From a virus (taxonomy: Duplodnaviria; Heunggongvirae; Uroviricota; Caudoviricetes), in IMG/VR virus record IMGVR_UViG_2713896905_000008: DNA of 42,302 bases. One strand, written 5' to 3'. A model generated the notes under the pieces. That model had not been told where the DNA came from, ran no database searches, and was given only the letters and a program-made list of their open reading frames with translations. Numbering within the stretch: position 1 is the first letter of the stretch; each line of letters starts with the position of its first letter. The translations under genes were made by a program, and so were the position numbers. Of this stretch, positions 6,721 to 31,148 are shown piece by piece.

Positions 6721-7359
6721 TTATCTTCCTATTGCGATAATCATAGTTCCATACAAACCATTTCCGGTTGATACTTTTAAGGTTACTGATGTCCTTGTTG
6801 TCGTGTACCCCATAAGTTTAAAGGTCGGAGCAGCCGTTAATGTGCCATCAGACCATAAGGCACTAACAGCCAGTGCACCTGAAGGAAATGCAATAGGGAA
6901 ATTACCAGTAGTTCCGTTAGTGTCCGCCCCATAAACATTCATCGAAAACATTTGAACAATATGACCACTTGGTAACTGAAACCAGTTTTTGCCAGATGGA
7001 AATGCAGACATATCTGGTATCTGATTTTCTCCTGTTCCCACATTCCGTTTTGCCGCTTCTCCCAAACCAAGGTTTTCGAGAGCCGTTTTCACCGTGCCAT
7101 CCGATTTGATATCGCCAAACGGATTATTGCGGCTTAACAGCAGCGCGCGAAGTGCGGTAAGCAACTGATCGTGCCGCCCCTTCTCCAGGCTGGCACCGGA
7201 TGCCTCCACCACGCTGCAAAGCTCCTCCTGCAACATGTCAAAGTAGTCATCATCCAGATCGGTGGCAGGCGTGCCGGTCTGGGGGTTACCACGGGTAAAA
7301 CCGTTCTTACCCGCGCCGAACTTATCCTTCTGCGCGGTTTTCGTGTCTATACGATGCAT
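6721..7359 (-). CDS. tail fibre protein (constant N-terminus joined to currently expressed variable C-terminus; stfP-like)
   Basis: 212 aa. The hix-like site lies in frame at ALENLGLGE. Sits between the gp48-like gene and tfa, as in e14 and Mu S. Confidence 0.8.
7057..7082. promoter_or_regulatory. right recombination site of invertible segment (hix/gix-like)
   Basis: TTCTCCCAAACCAAGGTTTTCGAGAG; imperfect dyad around a central AA, reminiscent of 26-bp hix/gix sites. Located inside the tail-fibre coding region. Confidence 0.7.
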
Positions 7360-7362
7360 GGA

Positions 7363-7947
7363 TTACTCCGGATATTTAAAAATTACGTAGGTATGCGACG
7401 GGCAGAGTTTGTTAAGCACACACTCGACAACGGTGTCACCCCAGATACGCAGTGCGGAATCACAGGGATCGCCACATGTCATCCAGGTGGTGTTGGCGGC
7501 GGCTGGCATGTTGACCTGCCAGTAATACCGCCATTCCGGCGCATTCACAGCGTCAGTACAGGCCGATGAGCAGGTGAACGTGCTTTTGTCGTATCGCGTG
7601 ATGGTGGCATCCGGTCTGCCCAGGGCAGCAAGCTGTGCAAGATAAAAATCCTCGTTGATGCCGCCCGCCAGGTTAACCTTCGCATCCAGCCGTTGCTGAC
7701 GCTGGCGAAGGGTCTGTGTCCCTGCGGGAATACATTCATCCGGCAGACCGCACAGACGCTCCCAGCGGTTTATCAGTTCATTGGTGGTGCGCGGATCCAG
7801 CTCCCGCATCAGGGCATCCGCACGCTGATGAACGCGGGTTAATGACGGTGCCGCACCGGCAATCGCCGGATCGCTGGCTGACCACGCCGGACCGGGGGGC
7901 AACAGTGCCGACAACAGACGGATGTAATCATCGTTTGTCACGTCCAT
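7363..7947 (-). CDS. Mu gp48-like tail protein (YmfQ-like, DUF2313-type)
   Basis: 194 aa, between the baseplate J-like gene and the tail fibre; this length and position match e14 ymfQ. Confidence 0.7.
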
Positions 7948-21912: not shown

Positions 21913-23646
21913 TTAAAGCGAGCGGATCCCATAGGACTCAATGTGGTCAGACAGCGTGTCTTCTTTCTCGTACAGCATGGCTCTGCCAACCGCCATAATC
22001 AGCGCAACTGCACCATCGATTTTGTTTTCCGCCTGCTCTTTGACGGGCTTCACCACATCATCGTTACCCGGAATGGTTTTGCCGACCACGTTGCCGATAC
22101 ACCAGGTCATGATGGGATTGCCATCATGATGAAAGCGCCCCGATTCAATTGCCGCTTCCAGCTCTTTCATCGGGTCGGACATGTTGGTGTAGTTCTGAAT
22201 GATAGTGATGGGGTTCAGGTCTTCATCAGCAAGGTCATGTGACAGCCCGGTCGCCCCGAAGGGGTCGATGGGTGACTCACTGACCGGGCTGATTTTGTTC
22301 GCCGCTTTGGCCTCCTCGAGGATGTAGCGATAATCCACTTCCGCACCATCGGTAACGGTCAGAACGCCCATTTCCACCCATTTCTGAAAGCGTTCGGCTG
22401 TCCGTCGATCTTCATTTTTCTCGACGCTGTACACCGTGTCATACGGTACCCAGAAACGCGGGGCCACACTGTAGTAATGCGTTTTACCGTCAATCTCGCG
22501 GGTATAAAGTCGCGCCATGCTGTTCATATCCAGCTTACGCGCCAGGTCAAAGGCCAGAATGCACGGCTGCCCCTCGAACTGCTCAAGGGTCAGTGATTTA
22601 TCCTCGCAGCTCTGCCAGCTCACCAGGTTGAAATAAGCCGAACGCGCCGACACCCAGATATTGAGGTGTTTTGTTTTAAAGACGTTTGCCAGACGGGCGT
22701 TATTTTTCGCACGCTGCTGCTGACTTAACAAAAATTCGCGATAAACCGACACGCCAATATTTGGATTGGCTTTTTCCAGCACCTGCGGGTCGGTCCAGTC
22801 GTCACCTTCATCAACGGTATAGATGATCCCGAACAGTTCATCGTTAGGCACCGAGCCGTTGAGCATCTCGATGACTTCCCGCCGTTTGTCGTAGCACGGC
22901 CCCTCAATGTTGTACCCGGCGGTAGTGATAGCCCACATCAGTGGCTGACGTCGCGCCCCCATCCCGGTAAGCATCGTGGTGTAAAGCGCATCGGTGGCGT
23001 GCTCGTGATATTCATCCACCACCGCACAGTGGGGTGATGATCCATCACCGGGGTTACCGATCAGCGGTTCAAACCGCGCGCCATCCTCCGGACGGTTCAT
23101 GTTTGAGGCGTTAACCTCAATCCCGAACGCTTCCGTCAGCATGGGTGTGCGTTTACACATCAGTCGCGCCGGGCGAAAGACTTCCCACGCCTGTTTCTCT
23201 GTCGTGGCACCGGAATACACTTCCGCGCCAAACTCGTTATCACAGGCAAAACAATACAGGGCGACACCGGCAGAGATTGCCGATTTGCCGTTCTTACGGG
23301 GGATTTCGGTATACACCTCACGGAAGCGGCGCAGCCGGGAGCCTTTATTGACCCAGCCAAACGCGCAGCAGATCACAAAGAGCTGCCACGGCTCCAGCGT
23401 GATGGGCATCCTCTTAAATGCCCACTCACCCTTGGTGTGCGGCAACAGCTGAATAAATTTGGCGGCCCGTTCAGCCAGGTCCTTGTCGAAGCGGTAACGA
23501 AACGACTTACTTTTTTCCGCCATCAGGTCATCAAGATGGCGCTGGCAGGCCTGAATCACAAACTGGCAGGCCACAATCTTTCCGCGCACGACATCACGGG
23601 CATACTGATTGGCAGCATTTACGTTGGGGTAAGATTTCCGGCTCAT
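21913..23646 (-). CDS. terminase large subunit
   Basis: 577 aa; ATPase-type N-terminal region and nuclease-type C-terminal region; overlaps the small subunit stop. Confidence 0.9.
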
Positions 23647-24146
23647 GACTCGATGATTTTCAGAAACGGGTTAGTTGCTTTTTTCTGCCCCGCCAGGCCA
23701 ATCAGACGCTGGCGGCTGCTGGGGTCGAGTCCGAGCATTGCCCCCGTGCTGCTCATTTCGGACTCCTGTTCTTTTTTGGCGGTCAGCTCCGGATTTTTGA
23801 CCATGCCGCCCATTGCACCGGTGATGGTGTTGCCCTGTCTGGCAATATTTTTCACGGCACGTCGCCAGAACTCATAGGCCACGCACCACCGCTCAAGTAC
23901 CGCCAGGTCAGTCACGCACAGCAGGCCCTGACCGCAGAGTTCTTTGGTTGTCAGTTGCCACATGATCGTGGCGAGAGGGAGATCTTCTTCTGCGAACCAC
24001 TCCGGTGGCTCAACACCTTTGATGGGCGTAAAAACAGGTTCATCTTTGTTCAGGGCTCGCTTGCCGGGGTTTCCGGCCAGCGCCTTGCGCGCCGTTGGCT
24101 TGGGGCGACGCCCGGAACGCCCCGCCGTTCCAGCCATATGCGGCAC
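23643..24146 (-). CDS. terminase small subunit
   Basis: 167 aa with basic N-terminus; immediately upstream of the large subunit. Confidence 0.8.
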
Positions 24147-24262: not shown

Positions 24263-24676
24263 TCACTTCAACCGTTCACGGGCCGTCTTCGCCTTATGAC
24301 ACGGCCAGCACAGACTCTGCAGATTACAGTCGGCATCAGTGCCGCCATGCGCTTTAGGGATGATGTGGTCAACGGTTTTCGCCTCGCGCACCACACCAGC
24401 ACGCAGGCACAACTGGCACAGGCCTTTGTCACGCTTGAGCACACGTTCACGGATAACATCCCATTTCGAACCATAACCGCGCTGGTGTCGGGACTGGCCT
24501 GGCTTGTATTGCTTCCAGCCTTCGCTTTTGTGGCTTTCGCAGTAGCCTGACGGGTCAGTAGTGGTATGGCGGCAGCCGCGAACACGGCAGGCTTTTGGGG
24601 TTCGTAGGGGCATTGCATAATCCTCTTGGATGGTTCGCGTACGATACGTGGCATCCTTCTCAGAATCGAATCGCAC
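24263..24676 (-). CDS. HNH homing-type endonuclease (terminase-associated)
   Basis: Cys/His motifs CRVRGCRHTT...GYCESH and DHIIPKAHGGTDADCNLQSLCWPCH. Start probably at MPLRTPKAC. Confidence 0.8.
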   Translation of the reverse strand: MRFDSEKDATYRTRTIQEDYAMPLRTPKACRVRGCRHTTTDPSGYCESHKSEGWKQYKPGQSRHQRGYGSKWDVIRERVLKRDKGLCQLCLRAGVVREAKTVDHIIPKAHGGTDADCNLQSLCWPCHKAKTARERLK

Positions 24677-24745: not shown

Positions 24746-25099
24746 ATGAACAGGAGTTCACAAATGAATAGTTATGAATGGGAATGGCTTTTGAACAAAG
24801 ATGACACCCTATACTTTTTCCCCGTAGGCCATTCTGTAGAAGGTAATTACAAAATTCACTTTGAGTTGAGCGGTAGTTGTAACCTTAGAGTCTCAGATGC
24901 TGAATGGCATGGTAAACCTGTACTGCTGTTCGAATACTTCGATGAAGATGATGACCGCCCTGCAATAATCGAAATATTAGAAACAACCACTACAACTGTG
25001 GAGGCGATGATCGCACATCTGAATAGTATCGATAGTATTTACCATGAACCGATTTACAAAGCTGTTTACGAGTGGGCTGTAAAGTTTTTCTATCGATGA
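24746..25099 (+). CDS. hypothetical acidic protein (opposite-strand cargo)
   Basis: 117 aa, A+T-rich, on the strand opposite the late operon; contains DEDDDRPAIIEILETTTTTVEA. Confidence 0.5.
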   Translation: MNRSSQMNSYEWEWLLNKDDTLYFFPVGHSVEGNYKIHFELSGSCNLRVSDAEWHGKPVLLFEYFDEDDDRPAIIEILETTTTTVEAMIAHLNSIDSIYHEPIYKAVYEWAVKFFYR

Positions 25100-25142
25100 T
25101 ACTTCGTTATCTTTCTGGTATTCACAATACCTTTACATATTA

Positions 25143-25769
25143 ATGACATGCCAGCACAATACTGTCACTTACAACCGTTCGGATTACCTAGAGAAAAGTA
25201 TGATTCAGGATTTACTGATCGAAGCAATTAGTCACGATAGGATGCATAAAAAGTTAAATGAACTGAATGGCTACTTCTACAATCGCAAACATGAAACACA
25301 AATACGTGATGAGTTAGTTGTTATACTCAATCAAATCAGCACACTAACTGCTTTAAGTGAGCATCCAAAACTCGGTATCGGCGCTGTTGACATATCACTT
25401 TATAACCAGTCGATATTAACGTCTGAACATAATGGCAATGTTGCAACCATCGAGATAAAACACCATTACCCAAAGGATTTACTTTATCGGCAAGTTCAAG
25501 AAGACATCATTTCCGATATTTCAAGAGTAATAGTTTCACCAACTACACATTTTATCCATATAATCCAGCAAAGAACCAGGATTAATACTCCTTCTTTTGG
25601 CCAAGTGAAATTCCTTGAACGTGATGCAAGTGATATCAGCACTTATGTGCAATACCTTGAAGAGCTAAGTTCATTTCCCAGTAATTTTCATAAAAAAAGT
25701 ATATGTATTGAGGTACTTGGTGAAATTATGTCGACATATACCTTTAACGTATATTCATTTGACAACTGA
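25143..25769 (+). CDS. hypothetical protein (opposite-strand cargo, co-oriented with 24746-25099)
   Basis: 208 aa, A+T-rich, no family recognised. Start may be at an internal Met. Confidence 0.5.
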   Translation: MTCQHNTVTYNRSDYLEKSMIQDLLIEAISHDRMHKKLNELNGYFYNRKHETQIRDELVVILNQISTLTALSEHPKLGIGAVDISLYNQSILTSEHNGNVATIEIKHHYPKDLLYRQVQEDIISDISRVIVSPTTHFIHIIQQRTRINTPSFGQVKFLERDASDISTYVQYLEELSSFPSNFHKKSICIEVLGEIMSTYTFNVYSFDN

Positions 25770-25790: not shown

Positions 25791-26048
25791 TTAATGGTTA
25801 GTTCTCTCTGCATCTATTTTACGAATATCAGCTTTATCCCGATTGCAGTTAGCCAGTGCAGACAACAGACTCACATTCAGCTCCAGGCTGGCACCATACG
25901 TCAGAGGATTTGGTATGAACGGTACAGGTGTTTCAGAAGTCAGACTAGTCGGTAATGTTGTAGCCGGAGTGCTCACGTAAACTGTCCGCGTACTTCCGCA
26001 ACCGCTCAGCAGCGGCAGCAGGCACAAGGCGTGCAGCACAATCATCAT
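25791..26048 (-). CDS. Rz1-like outer-membrane spanin lipoprotein (overlapping Rz in another frame)
   Basis: Lipobox LLPLLSGCGS after a signal-like MMIVLHALCLLP; Pro/Thr-rich mature part. Confidence 0.55.
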   Translation of the reverse strand: MMIVLHALCLLPLLSGCGSTRTVYVSTPATTLPTSLTSETPVPFIPNPLTYGASLELNVSLLSALANCNRDKADIRKIDAERTNH

Positions 26049-26325
26049 CCGCAACAGCCACTTTGATATCTTTCTGGGTTCTCTGTGACTCCAGTGCGAT
26101 CTGCTGTTTTGCATGCTGGTTAACCTCTATAACTGTATTGACGATTTGCAGTGATTGCAGGACGTTACGGGTAATGGCTGTTGCAGATTCAGCATTTTGT
26201 ACAGCCTCATCAGCACGTTTCTTTTCGTGCTGATATTTGCTGTAGTAGTGGTTGGCAGACCAGATGAAAGAACCGATGACAGTAAAGATGAATGCAGAGA
26301 TAGCCAGCTTATAGCTCAACTTCAT
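25945..26325 (-). CDS. Rz-like inner-membrane spanin
   Basis: 126 aa with N-terminal transmembrane helix then coiled coil; immediately after the endolysin. Confidence 0.6.
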   Translation of the reverse strand: MKLSYKLAISAFIFTVIGSFIWSANHYYSKYQHEKKRADEAVQNAESATAITRNVLQSLQIVNTVIEVNQHAKQQIALESQRTQKDIKVAVADDDCAARLVPAAAAERLRKYADSLREHSGYNITD

Positions 26326-26785
26326 TTACCACCCCACCAGCCTCTTTAAACCGGGAAATCAGGTCACCGATTTTATGTTCATACTGACCGTAACCTGCAC
26401 CAGGTAACGACGCCCAGATATTGCTGCAACGATCGATAGCCTGACGAATATCGCCGCGATCAATCATCGGTAAAGCGCCACGCTCTTTAATCTGCTGTAA
26501 TGCAACAGCATCCTGGCTTTTAGGAGAGAAGTCTGTCAGCCCTAACTGCTTGCGGTAAGCATCCCACCAGCGCGAAAGAAGTTGATAACGGCCTGCAGCT
26601 GTTGATTTGAGTTTCGGGTTTAGCGTGACAAGCTTGCGAGGGTGATCGGAGTAATCAGTGAAGAGTTCTCCACCGACAATAACATCATAACCGTGGTTAC
26701 GTGTCGGTTGTCGCCCGTTATCCGTTCCTTCTGACCATGCCACCATATCGAGGAAAGCTTTACGCTGGGAATTTAGTACCTGCAT
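26309..26785 (-). CDS. endolysin, lambda R-type lytic transglycosylase
   Basis: 158 aa closely matching lambda R as I recall it (NSQRKAFLDM.AWSEGTDNGRQ.TRNHGYDVIVGGELFTDYSDHPRKLVTLNPKLKST.AGRYQLLSRWWDAYRKQLGL). Confidence 0.9.
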   Translation of the reverse strand: MQVLNSQRKAFLDMVAWSEGTDNGRQPTRNHGYDVIVGGELFTDYSDHPRKLVTLNPKLKSTAAGRYQLLSRWWDAYRKQLGLTDFSPKSQDAVALQQIKERGALPMIDRGDIRQAIDRCSNIWASLPGAGYGQYEHKIGDLISRFKEAGGVVNEVEL

Positions 26786-26788
26786 AAA

Positions 26789-27115
26789 TTACTCCTTAGA
26801 GCCACCAAACTTATTACCGATTACTCTCATTGCAGCCCCACGAATAGCATCGACCCCGATCAGCCCAACGCCGCCACCAATGGCAACAGAAAGAGATTTA
26901 GGCCATCCGACATACTCAAGAGCGGATGCAAAAGTCAGCGTCAGAGCACCACAGAGCAAAATCTCGAGCGTTTTTCGTTTCCAGCCACCACCACCGCCAA
27001 AATAGGCAATGCGCAAGCCAGCCATAACGATCGACATAATCACTGCGCCCAGCGGTGTGTCTCCACGCCACCAGCTCTGGACCAACTCCAGCCAGGTATT
27101 TGGGTTATGAGGCAT
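26789..27115 (-). CDS. holin
   Basis: 108 aa with three hydrophobic segments and a charged C-terminus, immediately upstream of the endolysin. Confidence 0.6.
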   Translation of the reverse strand: MPHNPNTWLELVQSWWRGDTPLGAVIMSIVMAGLRIAYFGGGGGWKRKTLEILLCGALTLTFASALEYVGWPKSLSVAIGGGVGLIGVDAIRGAAMRVIGNKFGGSKE

Positions 27116-27266
27116 TTGTAGTTATCTCTCACCTCGCTGATACAGCAGGTGCAAATTGAGGAAACATCATGTACCGCAAATCAGATGCGGAAACGTCAAA
27201 GAAGCCGAGTCAATGGATAACTGCGGGATAGGCTAGGACCAAGGAATCCCCAGACCCAGAAACGAC

Positions 27267-27290
27267 AAAACCCGCTCGATGGCGGGTTTA
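27267..27290. terminator. GC-stem hairpin between holin and the cargo operon (candidate tR'-like terminator on the minus strand)
   Basis: AAACCCGC-tcgatg-GCGGGTTT; on the minus strand the stem is followed by TTTTGTCGTTTCT. Confidence 0.4.
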
Positions 27291-27406
27291 AGCTGTGTGG
27301 CGAAGTGAGCACACTTAACAGATTACGATATTTTTTGCGTACGCGTTAGTGTTTTGATAGAATTTTCAGCCACATAAAAATTCATTCTTATAATTCGGGA
27401 TATATA

Positions 27407-28582
27407 ATGGATATAACTTGTTTAGAATGTGGCAATGTTCTTGACGACCCAACTGTAGCTTGCGATAAATGCGGCGCCACGCCTCATGTTGTAGTGCTGG
27501 GCAAACAATCGTACTTTCCTATTGGTGCTGTAACAGCAAATCTTGAAAAAAATGATTCAAGAGCATTTGATTATCGATTAGGTGAAGTTTGGGATCTAAA
27601 AAATGAAGTCACATCTGAATTCATAACCAGAATTGAGAAAAAATTTAGCCGAAAAAACAAATTTCATAACTTCCTAGACTCAGATCACAACCCTTCATCC
27701 ATTCCTACGATCCTAAAAAAATACATTAATAAAAATAATGAATTCATTGATTTATCTAGAGCTATAATAGAGAAGCTTAAACATAATGCTAATAACGAAT
27801 CGAGAGTTGCCCAACTTCAGGGGGGGAGCGTTGTTTTCATCCACTATAAGTCTACCGAACCAGAGGATTTGGGAAAACTTCTAATCGTAATGGTTGATAA
27901 ACAAAGCGCCTATGACTTTGATTCGGATAAGTTGACCCCAACAAGATTAAATCCAATTAATACCGATGCCTTACGGCAGGCTGCGATGTTCGATTTAACT
28001 TTATTCGAAGCCAGTTATCCAGAAAACAAGGGTGACTCATATGTACATTTCTTGCAAGGTAAATCTAAAAGCGATTTTTTCAAAGACTCATTAGGTTGCC
28101 GACATGATTCGGACAATAAAAGAAGCATTCAGCAATTATTCAGTGCTATAGATATTTTTGCTAGTAAAAACTCACTCGGTCGTGTACTGCGTGATACTAT
28201 TGACAATGAAGTTAAATCCTTACTGGAAAAAAAATCAAAAGATAAATACGGAAATAAGTCCGTTAAGATAGAGGATATTTCAAAAATAATTGACTCATGC
28301 CTGACTGATTCACACAAATGTAAGGGAACGTTTGTCGATTTTGTTAATCTTAATGGTTTCCAGATTGATCCTCAATTTGAACCAACTCCTAAAGCAGCTG
28401 AAAGCGCGCTTACAATTGAAGTGGCAGATAACGACAATAATTTTAAGTTGAAAATAATGCGTGGAGCTATTGGAGACGAAAAGTCAAATAAGCCTGTAAT
28501 TCTCACTGACAACAAATGCGAAATTGTGATAAAATTGAGTCAGGCAAATTATGATGAACTCAAAAGATATAGAGACAGCTAA
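27407..28582 (+). CDS. zinc-ribbon protein with NdpA/YejK-like (NA37-type) region; first gene of a cargo pair
   Basis: 391 aa. N-terminal CLECGN...CDKCG four-Cys ribbon. Central region aligns by eye with YejK: GGSVVFIHY / GGFVLFCHY and YVHFLQGKSKSDFFKDSLG / [22 protein letters not shown]. A+T-rich. Confidence 0.6.
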   Translation: MDITCLECGNVLDDPTVACDKCGATPHVVVLGKQSYFPIGAVTANLEKNDSRAFDYRLGEVWDLKNEVTSEFITRIEKKFSRKNKFHNFLDSDHNPSSIPTILKKYINKNNEFIDLSRAIIEKLKHNANNESRVAQLQGGSVVFIHYKSTEPEDLGKLLIVMVDKQSAYDFDSDKLTPTRLNPINTDALRQAAMFDLTLFEASYPENKGDSYVHFLQGKSKSDFFKDSLGCRHDSDNKRSIQQLFSAIDIFASKNSLGRVLRDTIDNEVKSLLEKKSKDKYGNKSVKIEDISKIIDSCLTDSHKCKGTFVDFVNLNGFQIDPQFEPTPKAAESALTIEVADNDNNFKLKIMRGAIGDEKSNKPVILTDNKCEIVIKLSQANYDELKRYRDS

Positions 28583-28584
28583 TA

Positions 28585-29799
28585 ATGACAATTGCTGATG
28601 ACTTATCAAGATTAGCGCAGATTATTAACGGAGCCTCAAGCAGAGTTGAGGGCTACTACACTGTCATAAGTCTTGAAGAAAGCATTGTTATTGTAAATAG
28701 TTCTGAAATAATTAGACTGTTACAATCTATAGGTTATAAAAAGGCAACAAACTGCATCGAAAATAATGAAATTTGGCTAGATCGCCAAGCTTCATCTTGG
28801 GATGACGCTATAATTTATGAGAATGTTGAGTCTTTTTGGTCTAGAGTAAACACCCAAAACGCTCTTCCGAAAAATTATATCATCGGAACGCCGTTAATAC
28901 TCCCTACTTCTAAGAATGAAAGCATCGAAAAAATCCATATTTTCTTTATGTGGAAAGATATCCTTTCATTAATTGCTGATCATCATAACAGTGACTGCTC
29001 TGTCTTATTTTTCACCAATGAAGACAAAAGTTATACAGTCGAACTCACGCATTTTTTACAATATAGCGAGATTAATCGCTTATCGAACTCGTCTCTTAAA
29101 TATGAAATTATAAAGGAGCTTCTCGACACAATAAAAATCAATGATTTACACAAAAGCGAGCGCAAGCTCGTTATACGTTCAGCCATAAACGAAGTATTTA
29201 AAGCAAATGGTACATTCAATTTCTTTGACTTGCTTAACTCTACTGAACTCGTCAGAAAAAAATATGATGAACTATATGAGATTTACACAAAGAGGTTTTC
29301 TGTAAATAAAATTCTTAACGAACTCGATGAGAAAAATCTTGAGTTCACGAGTAAAATTAACGAATTCATATCATCTAATCAGACAAAAGCATTGACTATT
29401 CCCGGTGCATTAATAGCAGCTGGTGGCTTAGTGAAGGCTAATGAAACAACCGAAGCAATATTGATTATCGCAGGACTTTGGATGATAAAAAAAGTCAATT
29501 ACATTTCTATTGAGATATTCAATGAAACATTCGACAACTTACGTTCTCGAGTGGAGTCCGCTTTCGATAAGTATTTAAAGTTTGAAGAAAATAAAGAAAT
29601 CAAAGATAATGCAGATAGTATTAAGAGTAGCATTACAGGTTTGATTGATAAAGCTAAAAAAAGGATGAGAACTGTTAAATATCTCGCATCAGCCATGTTT
29701 TATGGAGGCCTTATTTACGTTGGATATAAACAGTTCCCAGTCTTTTTTGAAAAATCGGCAGTAAATCTATTTTATTTTTTATGCCATACTATAAGCTAA
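28585..29799 (+). CDS. protein with C-terminal two-helix membrane anchor; second gene of the cargo pair
   Basis: 404 aa, starts 2 nt after the upstream stop. Hydrophobic helices ALTIPGALIAAGGLV...AILIIAGLWMI and YLASAMFYGGLIYVGY. No enzymatic motif recognised. 3' end overlaps the Q gene stop convergently. Confidence 0.6.
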   Translation: MTIADDLSRLAQIINGASSRVEGYYTVISLEESIVIVNSSEIIRLLQSIGYKKATNCIENNEIWLDRQASSWDDAIIYENVESFWSRVNTQNALPKNYIIGTPLILPTSKNESIEKIHIFFMWKDILSLIADHHNSDCSVLFFTNEDKSYTVELTHFLQYSEINRLSNSSLKYEIIKELLDTIKINDLHKSERKLVIRSAINEVFKANGTFNFFDLLNSTELVRKKYDELYEIYTKRFSVNKILNELDEKNLEFTSKINEFISSNQTKALTIPGALIAAGGLVKANETTEAILIIAGLWMIKKVNYISIEIFNETFDNLRSRVESAFDKYLKFEENKEIKDNADSIKSSITGLIDKAKKRMRTVKYLASAMFYGGLIYVGYKQFPVFFEKSAVNLFYFLCHTIS

Positions 29800-30150
29800 C
29801 ATTGCTAAACAGCCGTCAACAAACCCCATGGCAGTCTGCAATTCCTTCCTAATTGTGCCATCTGAACATCTTCTCTTCTTGGCAATAGTGCGTAATGAGA
29901 TACCAATAACAAAGTGAGCTATGAGCAGCTCATATTCCTCTGGTTTATACTTTCGCAACCGAGCCACACAACCGTCTATCATGATGCCTTCATCATCATC
30001 ACACTGGAGACGTGACTTTTTACCGTGTGGTAAAAGTCCCTTGAAACCAGCCGCTATCGGCTGCCAGTCCACACCACTATTTTCTGCTGCAGCCCATGCT
30101 CCCCAGCGGTCCAATACTTCATACATATCACGCATCAACTTTCTCCACAA
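29779..30150 (-). CDS. late-gene antiterminator Q (QuuD / phage-82 type)
   Basis: 123 aa matching the QuuD family as I recall it (LDRWGAWAA...SIAAGFKGL...CDDD...CSDG). Confidence 0.8.
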   Translation of the reverse strand: MWRKLMRDMYEVLDRWGAWAAAENSGVDWQPIAAGFKGLLPHGKKSRLQCDDDEGIMIDGCVARLRKYKPEEYELLIAHFVIGISLRTIAKKRRCSDGTIRKELQTAMGFVDGCLAMLAYSMA

Positions 30151-30152
30151 AA

Positions 30153-31148
30153 TCAGGCCAGCACGCCAATTGCCAGCGCACGATCGATAAAACGAAATAT
30201 CAGCTCCAGCTGGGAGCCATACTTCTCTTCAAATGCCACGGTATCCGCATGCAGCTCGTCGTGATGCTTTCTGCACAAAGGCAACACAAAAAGGTCATGC
30301 GCTTTTGTTCCCATTCCACCCTGACCGTAACCTATCAGGTGATGGGGATCATCAGCGGGCCTTCCACAACATGCACACGGCTGTGTCTTAACCCAGCGCG
30401 TGTACTTTTCATTAACCCAGCGGCGACGTTTGGGGCGTAACATAAAAGACTCCGGCGACTCCGGATCCACTTTCAGCGCCAGCACCTTTTTCGCCTTATC
30501 CAGGATGATGCTGGTGGCAGGAACCGAAGGCACAAGGTCACTTTCCCGGGTGACAGACGGCACAACAGGCTTCGGTAATCTCAGTGCCTTACGGGCTGCA
30601 CTTTCCGGTAAGGCATCCGCCAGATCATTACGAATCAGCCACCAGCACAGTTCCGGCATTGTCACAACGTGACTGTCATCAAAACCGAGATCCCGACGCA
30701 CAACAGACAACACCCAGCGGGCACAGTTATCCGTTGCCATTGTTTCCAGCCGTTCCGTGAACTGATCGCGCAGCTGGTTATCGCAGTGCCAGCACAGACG
30801 GATTGCGCCCGGAGCGTGCCGCATTGTGGTCATGTTCTCGCTGTGCCAGTCGGAATGAGGCCACTGACAGCCCTTTTCACGAAGTAACCAGCTTTCAAGA
30901 CATTCCACGCCACCAGCACGACGGATCACTGCCTCATAGCGGAACACGGCCCGAACGGCAGGATCATCCGCCAGCGGTTGTGATGCCGCCGGAACGGCAC
31001 CACTGGCGAAAGATGAATAACGTTCTGGCTCAGGCTCCAGCAGGACACGCCCCTGCATAAACAGGGGCATCAGCTCTGTACCTGGTCTGAACAATACGAT
31101 CCCCATACGCGGGGCAATTTCAGGGGTCAGTAGTGCTCTCACGGTCAC
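30153..31148 (-). CDS. DUF968-like protein with C-terminal HNH-type Cys/His motif
   Basis: 331 aa; C-terminus CACCGRPADDPHHL...LCRKHHDELH; nin-region position. Confidence 0.5.
   Translation of the reverse strand: MTVRALLTPEIAPRMGIVLFRPGTELMPLFMQGRVLLEPEPERYSSFASGAVPAASQPLADDPAVRAVFRYEAVIRRAGGVECLESWLLREKGCQWPHSDWHSENMTTMRHAPGAIRLCWHCDNQLRDQFTERLETMATDNCARWVLSVVRRDLGFDDSHVVTMPELCWWLIRNDLADALPESAARKALRLPKPVVPSVTRESDLVPSVPATSIILDKAKKVLALKVDPESPESFMLRPKRRRWVNEKYTRWVKTQPCACCGRPADDPHHLIGYGQGGMGTKAHDLFVLPLCRKHHDELHADTVAFEEKYGSQLELIFRFIDRALAIGVLA

Follow-up and report, generated by a model that had tools for sequence, protein, structure and literature searches.

We propose that the late genes of the tailed phage recorded as IMG/VR virus IMGVR_UViG_2713896905_000008 (Caudoviricetes) are controlled from a conserved minus-strand element of about 95 nucleotides (nt), located at 27261-27355 a short way upstream of the holin gene. 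The stretch of DNA analysed is 42,302 nt long; it is called the window below and all coordinates refer to it. In the window, the gene for the late antiterminator Q is separated from this element by a defence cassette, DS-1, and we propose that the late transcript starts beyond the cassette and does not cross it. We give this reading a probability of roughly three in four; the position of the control unit can be stated with confidence, its internal register cannot. As DS-1 lies between the Q stop codon and the late unit in the opposite orientation, the late transcript would start downstream of the cassette, and this resolves an apparent paradox of the window, as the late operon need not be read through a convergent defence cassette. 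The cassette itself has been described before, and this Q family normally has such a layout. Two points are modestly new: an antisense defence hotspot regularly lies between the Q gene and its late-control unit, and the element seems to serve both directions. The features on which the argument rests are as follows.

29779..30135, minus strand: late antiterminator Q of the Q21 family, 118 amino acids (aa) from the ATG at 30135; the open reading frame (ORF) 29779..30150 reaches a TTG at 30150
27356..29805, no strand: hypervariable cargo slot, here filled by DS-1; boundaries from BLAST comparison with 11 relatives that carry other cargo or none, and from composition
28585..29799, plus strand: DS-1 gene 2, anti-phage protein (NCBIfam NF053869 DS1_2_antiphage; phrog_5023); its stop end overlaps that of Q
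27407..28582, plus strand: DS-1 gene 1, coding for an anti-phage protein that has a YejK/NA37-like (nucleoid-associated) domain, from NCBIfam, Pfam and the RefSeq name
27261..27355, minus strand: conserved late-control element of about 95 nt, defined by alignments, an nhmmer profile and linkage to Q in both directions
26789..27115, minus strand: holin, the first late gene (PF05106, E 5.7e-25; annotation of relatives)

The minus strand of this region carries a run of phage genes, namely a DUF968 gene, Q, the holin and the endolysin, with two plus-strand ORFs between Q and the holin. An earlier reading made from the letters of this DNA (the sequence-only reading) had described convergent, overlapping stops of Q and the cargo and a holin that begins at 27115, and the ORF coordinates bear out both points; the stop ends of Q and of the second cargo ORF overlap by 21 nt, at 29779-29799. 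The Q protein matches Pfam PF06530 (Phage_antitermQ, E 2.6e-47) as well as phrog_79, and these profile matches place it in a recognised Q family, the Q21 type; its match to the solved Q21 structure (6p18/6jnx) is distant, with an E-value of 2e-3. The element begins 2428 nt past the Q stop codon, which means that the late unit is not immediately downstream of Q here.

The limits of the variable DNA were derived from natural comparisons. In eleven relatives, BLAST homology over Q ends at 29806-29813, resumes at 27355-27356 and continues to 27267, the foot of the terminator described below. The last nine or so codons of Q (29779-29805) fall in swapped cassette DNA. Each cargo class brings its own C-terminal tail for Q, and cargo and Q stops overlap by 4-30 nt in several classes. 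Phage SfII has the same Q type with a different opposite-strand cargo and retains 26305-27355 as well as Q down to 29846, so the conserved element survives a cargo swap. SfV-type relatives have the DUF968 gene and the holin in common with the window; their Q is of an unrelated 250-aa type accompanied by a sense-strand cargo, homology is lost exactly over 27143-30140, and neither in these loci nor in those of phage 21 was a copy of the element found. The gap at 27143-30140 implies that Q, cargo and element were replaced together in the SfV-type phages. Taking these loci, SfII and the eleven relatives together, the variable slot extends over 27356-29805.

Linkage between Q and the element was observed in both directions. 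An alignment of ten phages yielded an element of about 90 nt with sharp bounds, and the hairpin together with about 65 nt upstream of it is conserved in more than 100 related loci. The forward survey comprised 123 Q-homologue loci, taken from 43 one-genome-per-species contigs of a wide range of Enterobacterales and from 80 IMG/VR contigs, and an nhmmer profile of the element gave matches in 127 of the 138 sequences searched. The element was found downstream of Q and on the Q strand in 116 of the 123 loci, and six of the other seven have less than 1.5 kilobases (kb) of downstream DNA. The gap from Q to the element measures 0.6-3.0 kb with a G+C content of 30-43%, and in most loci more than 90% of it is covered by one to three ORFs on the opposite strand, the distance from Q stop to cargo stop being -30 to +46 nt for the most part. 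Cargo is absent only from 1720a-02 and three IMG/VR contigs (L097-L099), and here the element is located 7-14 nt past the Q stop codon. A reciprocal survey, started from the site pattern alone, covered 120 IMG/VR contigs, of which 92 have enough upstream DNA; a Q-family gene is present upstream, on the same strand and 0.6-3.0 kb away, in 91 of these 92. The genes that come after the element in relatives are late-strand genes: a DNA methylase gene, tRNA genes, stx1 or stx2, and lysis genes. The Q family concerned (relatives within PF06530) spans Escherichia, Shigella, Klebsiella, Enterobacter, Citrobacter, Yersinia, Serratia, Erwinia, Pantoea and Providencia. A few loci (L087:7369-8440 and its relatives; L018; L128) have a sense-strand ORF of 346, 288 or 149 aa between Q and the antisense cargo, and going by these the slot is apparently not exclusively antisense.

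These comparisons bear directly on the layout to which the sequence-only reading had given first place, in which the late promoter lies directly past Q (about 29700-29800) within the last part of the cassette, the late transcript crosses DS-1 antisense at 27407-29799, and the hairpin at 27267-27290 is a distant tR'. The late promoter does adjoin Q in lambda, 21 and 82, and there is no intergenic space between Q and the cassette here. The DNA after Q, however, changes with every cargo class, and since everything past about 29806 is specific to the cargo class, no conserved Q-linked sequence is possible there. On that strand, promoter-like matches are about as frequent as expected by chance (12 against 10.6), and the sole Q-linked conserved non-coding element is 27261-27355, which adjoins Q in the cargo-less phages. 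We therefore consider a promoter abutting Q very improbable. The same reading had also offered a second layout, with the late promoter at about 27290-27400, and it is this one that is supported: the element at 27261-27355 travels with the Q family across genera, adjoins Q when there is no cargo, is replaced along with Q in the SfV-type phages, ends in a conserved terminator, and has an experimentally studied counterpart upstream of essD in the prophage DLP12.

Four parts can be distinguished in the element, listed here in the direction of late transcription.

27333..27348, minus strand: invariant 16-base-pair (bp) site TAACGCGTACGCAAAA with the palindrome GCGTACGC at 27337-27344; candidate Q-binding element
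27320..27325, minus strand: -10-like hexamer TAATCT (TAnnnT); putative -10 of the late promoter or sigma-dependent pause element
27288..27319, minus strand: block GTTAAGTGTGCTCACTTCGCCACACAGCTTAA, conserved above 87% at positions 6-17, which contains the inverted repeat nTAAG...CTTAn'
27261..27289, minus strand: predicted intrinsic terminator (tR'-like), stem 27289-27268, T-tract 27270-27261

The sequence TAACGCGTACGCAAAA is present once in the window, and among 76 unique elements each of its positions is 96-100% conserved. In the same set, the T, A and T of the hexamer are 100% conserved, its three middle bases vary and an invariant G comes next. Such a conservation pattern would be the signature of an element that is read by sigma region 2. 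The spacing between palindrome and hexamer is exactly 11 nt in all elements measured. After the hexamer and the invariant G follows the conserved block, which begins GnTAAGAGTGGT. The TAAG/CTTA core of its inverted repeat is retained in 44 of 46 sequences, and an A-T to G-C double change is compensated in 4 of 4 cases; these pair counts on the first inverted repeat are only suggestive. RNAalifold called no consensus structure for 44 elements, as indels in the terminator region spoil the alignment, and in an Rfam search of the element the best matches (E 0.6 and 0.98) were far below the gathering scores. For use in other prophages, the pattern TAACGCGTACGCAAAA-N7-TAnnnTG may serve as a handle with which late-promoter units and the cargo adjacent to them can be found.

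The hairpin at 27267-27290 with its minus-strand T-run, which had been described as a tR'-type terminator, stands, with a stem at 27289-27268 and a terminator that is conserved in relatives. It is the top terminator-like site of 26700-30300 and lies on the minus strand, with a stem AAACCCGCCATCGAGCGGGTTT of 8 pairs (5 of them G-C) followed by TGTCGTTTCT; eight terminator-like sites were found in this interval, compared with 2.7 +/- 1.6 in shuffled sequences. For the 68-nt terminator stretch, the folding energy is -18 kcal/mol (z-score -2.3). A hairpin and T-run past the hexamer are present in at least 68 of 85 unique elements, where the sequence of the stem varies and the structure is kept, and the T-run starts at a median of 65 nt after the hexamer, mostly at 55-75 nt. 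The unit thus has a predicted intrinsic terminator shortly downstream, and after it the holin and endolysin genes.

We infer that a promoter and a site for Q loading are present in the element, and that Q binds the 16-bp site. Variation in Q itself is in line with this. Q proteins down to 60% identity carry the motif CSDGT(I/V)RK and go with the site GCGTACGC, those of 1720a-02 and cdtI (56-57% identical; KSEKAIRIE and KDEKLIRIE) go with GCGGTCCGC, and that of 434 and DLP12 (49% identical; CSDGYIGKR) goes with ACGTACGT. Co-variation of the putative recognition helix of Q and the site would fit a Q binding site, as a correlation over three classes only.

Among the closest known systems, phage 21 has a Q protein of the same family (PF06530), and the order of its unit is -35, Q-binding element (QBE) in the spacer, -10, start site, sigma-dependent pause element (SDPE) 12 nt after the QBE, and terminator within 50 nt. 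Both units are compact, at about 90 nt. The site and the hexamer are 11 nt apart in the window, similar to the 12 nt between QBE and SDPE in phage 21, and in both phages a terminator follows within about 50-65 nt, with late lysis genes downstream. There are also clear differences: pR'21 starts 6 nt after the Q21 stop codon, whereas the unit in the window is 2.4 kb away from Q; the QBE of phage 21 consists of two direct 8-bp repeats, whereas the site in the window is a palindrome; and the element in the window has no TTGACA-like -35 and no detectable sequence similarity to pR'21.

A counterpart with the same architecture as the window is found in DLP12, PA-2 and 434, which have a Q-family gene, an opposite-strand moron (the porin gene nmpC or lc), an element that is 74-76% identical and then the holin. 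In DLP12 of E. coli K-12 these are quuD, the opposite-strand nmpC (interrupted by the insertion sequence (IS) IS5), the element at 577,192-577,289, and essD. The DLP12 type differs from the window in that its cargo is a porin and not a defence gene, its Q is 49% identical and its site is the variant ACGTACGT. According to Rueggeberg 2013, as cited in PMC7918800, the essD operon is under a Q-type antiterminator, and a lux reporter was built on the regulatory region upstream of essD (PMC7918800). A peak of the RpoS holoenzyme in a SELEX (systematic evolution of ligands by exponential enrichment) data set between insH/nmpC and essD was left unused; it is too coarse and probably marks the nmpC promoter. 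Two anti-small RNAs of enterohaemorrhagic E. coli, AgvB and AsxR, were considered as products of the element and rejected, as they are located after moron genes, convergent and away from the late promoter.

Several observations weigh against a late promoter and Q site in the element. No convincing sigma-70 -35 was found for the hexamer, TAACGC or CTAACG matching in 3 of 6 positions at best, and at 27290-27400 no promoter on the minus strand was called by a consensus scan. With TAATCT as the -10, transcription would start near 27313 and leave the 5' arm of the inverted repeat untranscribed; with TAATCT as a pause element, as in lambda and 21, the sole upstream -10 candidate, AAAAAT (27335-27330), falls short of the required distance by 2-3 nt. 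The invariant site is a palindrome, compared with the direct repeat of the Q21 QBE, and part of its conservation may serve the cargo promoter instead. Two loci do not follow the rule: in L103, Q is followed by a bidirectional-looking hairpin (7340-7420) and no element within 7 kb, and L201 has an element without a Q gene within 4 kb upstream. Finally, initiation at DLP12 essD is attributed to RpoE in Rueggeberg 2015, as that work is cited in PMC7918800; a sigma-E-type promoter was sought in the element by eye only, and no motif was seen, with spacings of 14 or 20 nt that did not fit.

The missing -35 also feeds a different view, in which the element lacks a promoter; polymerase would come in from the early operon by way of Q and antisense DS-1, be modified by Q at the element and pass the terminator, so that the cassette has to be crossed. 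The conserved inverted repeat, located only 2 nt past the hexamer, would suggest a start further upstream, the Q transcript would continue straight into the element in cargo-less phages, and no terminator separates Q from the cassette in the window. Against this, the known Q proteins, Q21 among them, are loaded onto a paused complex that contains sigma and is close to a promoter, and such loading is unlikely after 0.6-3 kb of untranslated, AT-rich antisense RNA that meets a cargo promoter head-on. The slot tolerates about 32 cargo classes that differ widely in length, and some relatives have a bidirectional-looking hairpin directly after Q. DLP12 has IS5 and nmpC between quuD and essD, yet the fragment upstream of essD served as an expression reporter (PMC7918800). 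A promoterless element is thus unlikely in our view, and the number of tolerated cargo classes argues that the slot is neutral for late expression.

The far end of the element contains a signal that points in the other direction.

27335..27363, plus strand: predicted cargo promoter, read from the sequence, with -35 TTGCGT at 27335-27340, a 17-nt spacer, -10 TAGAAT at 27358-27363 and TG at 27355-27356

TTGCGT is invariant and lies inside the conserved element, while the slot boundary at 27356 falls within the spacer of this promoter. A TAnnnT is present at exactly the offset of the cargo promoter in 19 of 32 cargo classes, compared with three or fewer at any other offset. The conserved element therefore appears to supply the -35 of a divergent promoter to any cargo that is inserted, and the cargo promoter and the late unit would overlap back-to-back. 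One could argue from this that the element is mainly a regulatory region of the cargo slot, with a cargo -35, an operator and an insulating terminator, and that the late promoter is located elsewhere, for example at 27116-27260. TTGCGT, 17 nt and TAnnnT on the cargo strand are indeed conserved across cargo classes, the palindrome could be an operator, and 27130-27260 is conserved among the phages with this holin. But the hexamer, the G, the TAAGAGTGG block and the terminator are all located beyond the cargo promoter as seen from the slot and have the direction of the late strand, phages without cargo retain the element, and what comes after the terminator in cdtI and the Stx phages has no relation to 27116-27260. 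We regard this explanation as quite improbable, and even all three alternatives taken together are unlikely.

With the late promoter placed in the element, one might speculate that the 16-bp site at 27333-27348 has a dual role, as Q-binding element and as -35 and spacer of the cargo promoter, so that one polymerase at a time can be accommodated and Q switches the cassette off. In a lysogen, polymerase would occupy the cargo promoter and the defence cassette would be expressed; once the prophage is induced, binding of Q would occlude TTGCGT, silence the cassette and load polymerase for late transcription. This is a tentative idea and rather doubtful as it stands. If true, the junction of Q and the late promoter would be a standard expression socket, giving lysogeny-specific expression of the cargo and its automatic silencing in the lytic cycle. 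In any case, it is a testable instance of a bidirectional control region common to cargo and late genes.

The following sequence of events is the most likely. Q is diffusible; made from 29779-30135, it would act in trans on the late unit, which is 2.4 kb away from the Q gene. Late transcription would begin at the unit at 27261-27355 and, without Q, be terminated at 27261-27289; with Q, RNA polymerase would read through the terminator into the holin, the endolysin and later genes. DS-1 would be expressed on its own and divergently in the lysogen, most likely from the sigma-70 promoter TTGCGT-17 nt-TAGAAT. As no terminator is present between the overlapping stops of Q and DS-1, the Q transcript should enter the cassette antisense. 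A terminator scan of 26700-30300 located no plus-strand terminator beyond 29799, and the cargo transcript should likewise enter Q antisense. Any antisense transcription of DS-1 would then come from read-through of the Q transcript and not from the late promoter. The Q transcript entering the cassette or the cargo transcript entering Q could couple induction to expression of DS-1, as Q does for Tai in phi80 (PMC11364771). Such coupling, which had been expected with either layout, would, if it exists, depend on the early or Q transcript extending into the cassette or on Q bound beside the cargo promoter, and not on the late transcript.

The cargo of the window can be named. The product of gene 1 scores 451 bits against NCBIfam NF053868 DS1_1_antiphage (cut-off 330) and matches Pfam NA37 (E 1.4e-23), and that of gene 2 scores 375 bits against NF053869 (cut-off 315); with both adjacent genes exceeding their equivalog cut-offs, the cargo is by these scores the known DS-1 defence system. 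RefSeq names identical neighbours 'nucleoid-associated anti-phage protein' and 'anti-phage protein'. DS-1 originates from the DefensePredictor study, in which the YejK nucleoid-associated domain is listed among the newly validated defence domains (PMC13092281). Protection against phages has been validated there for the DS-1 family (PMC13092281) and is predicted for the copy in the window. PADLOC v2 (2023) has no DS-1 model, whereas NCBIfam has one. The same block of Q, DS-1 and holin is present in about 80 complete E. coli genome records. The cassette has a G+C content of 33-36%, compared with 50-58% in the flanks, and thus a foreign composition. Insertions of IS1 or IS3 are found inside the matched block from Q to endolysin, DS-1 included, in some E. 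coli genomes (H32, H53-H56), and the DS-1 genes are frameshifted in several IMG/VR contigs (L058, L068, L071, L078). The cassette thus seems to be decaying in part of the population.

DS-1 is one of many occupants of this position. In 116 loci, the slot holds 59 protein clusters in about 32 cargo classes. PADLOC matches of the cargo include PD-Lambda-5 and PDC-M53; Pfam matches include NA37, GmrSD_N, AAA_15/21, ThsB_TIR, caspase, RelA_SpoT, HEPN and SDH protease; NCBIfam matches include KwaA-, PtuA- and MAD3-like proteins; and porins are found as well. The slot is therefore a rich source of known and candidate defence genes. No published description of a hotspot between Q and its late element was found in a limited literature search; the single cases nmpC and lc have long been known. 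The hotspots of P2 and P4 prophages (PMC9122126) are similar to the slot in their fixed flanks, a hypervariable interior and many unrelated defence systems. The slot differs from them in belonging to another phage group, in that its flanks are a regulator gene and that regulator's own target element, and in that the cargo is almost always antisense.

Shiga toxin (Stx) phages are among the carriers of the slot. Stx2a_1447/WGPS2 and the Stx1a phages (L009, L012, L006) have 1.6-2.2 kb of opposite-strand cargo between Q and the element that precedes stx, and 1720a-02 is cargo-less. Cargo between Q and the stx unit could matter when toxin expression is compared among Q types. Stx phages are also known for the PR'-tR' unit of StxS (PMC7547250), in which a late promoter active in lysogeny is terminated at once, giving a short RNA, and which tracks the phylogeny of Q. 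The Q protein that goes with the StxS unit is of another family (144 aa); the unit follows its Q gene directly and gives a transcript of 258 nt that is processed to 74 nt, and it has no sequence similarity to the element in the window.

A prophage defence gene antisense beside Q-controlled late genes, as in the window, has been described as the Tai/Ati 'noncontiguous operon' of phi80 (PMC11364771), where expression of Q lowers the defence protein Tai (PMC11364771). In phi80, the antisense gene is downstream of the late promoter, before the packaging genes, and is crossed by the late transcript, whereas DS-1 is upstream of the proposed promoter. The placement of DS-1 is therefore not of the Tai type. 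By position, a second cassette of low G+C content in the window is: it occupies 24746-25769 on the plus strand, consists of two ORFs of 117 aa (phrog_14397) and 208 aa (phrog_12494), and lies antisense inside the late operon between Rz1 (25791-26114) and the HNH and terminase genes (24263-24676 and 23643-24146). Its proteins gave no Pfam, PADLOC or NCBIfam match, and it is absent from the relative CP104371. This cassette, and not DS-1, is the one that the late transcript would cross, in a position like that of Tai in phi80.

The remaining features are located on either side of the Q-to-holin region.

27116..27260, minus strand: leader from the terminator to the holin start, common to SfII and SfIV and partly to PA-2, 434 and DLP12
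26309-26785, minus strand: endolysin, next after the holin
30153-31148, minus strand: DUF968 gene, upstream of Q on the same strand

The leader was not found in cdtI or the Stx phages, in which other late genes come after the element. It contains a hairpin, CCGCA-TCTGATT-TGCGG, at 27174-27190 (minus strand), in the stretch common to SfII and SfIV and partly to PA-2, 434 and DLP12. Two terminator-like hairpins are located on the Q strand at 30219-30201 and 30177-30157, at the 3' end of the DUF968 gene and just before the start of Q, and these might limit the expression of Q.

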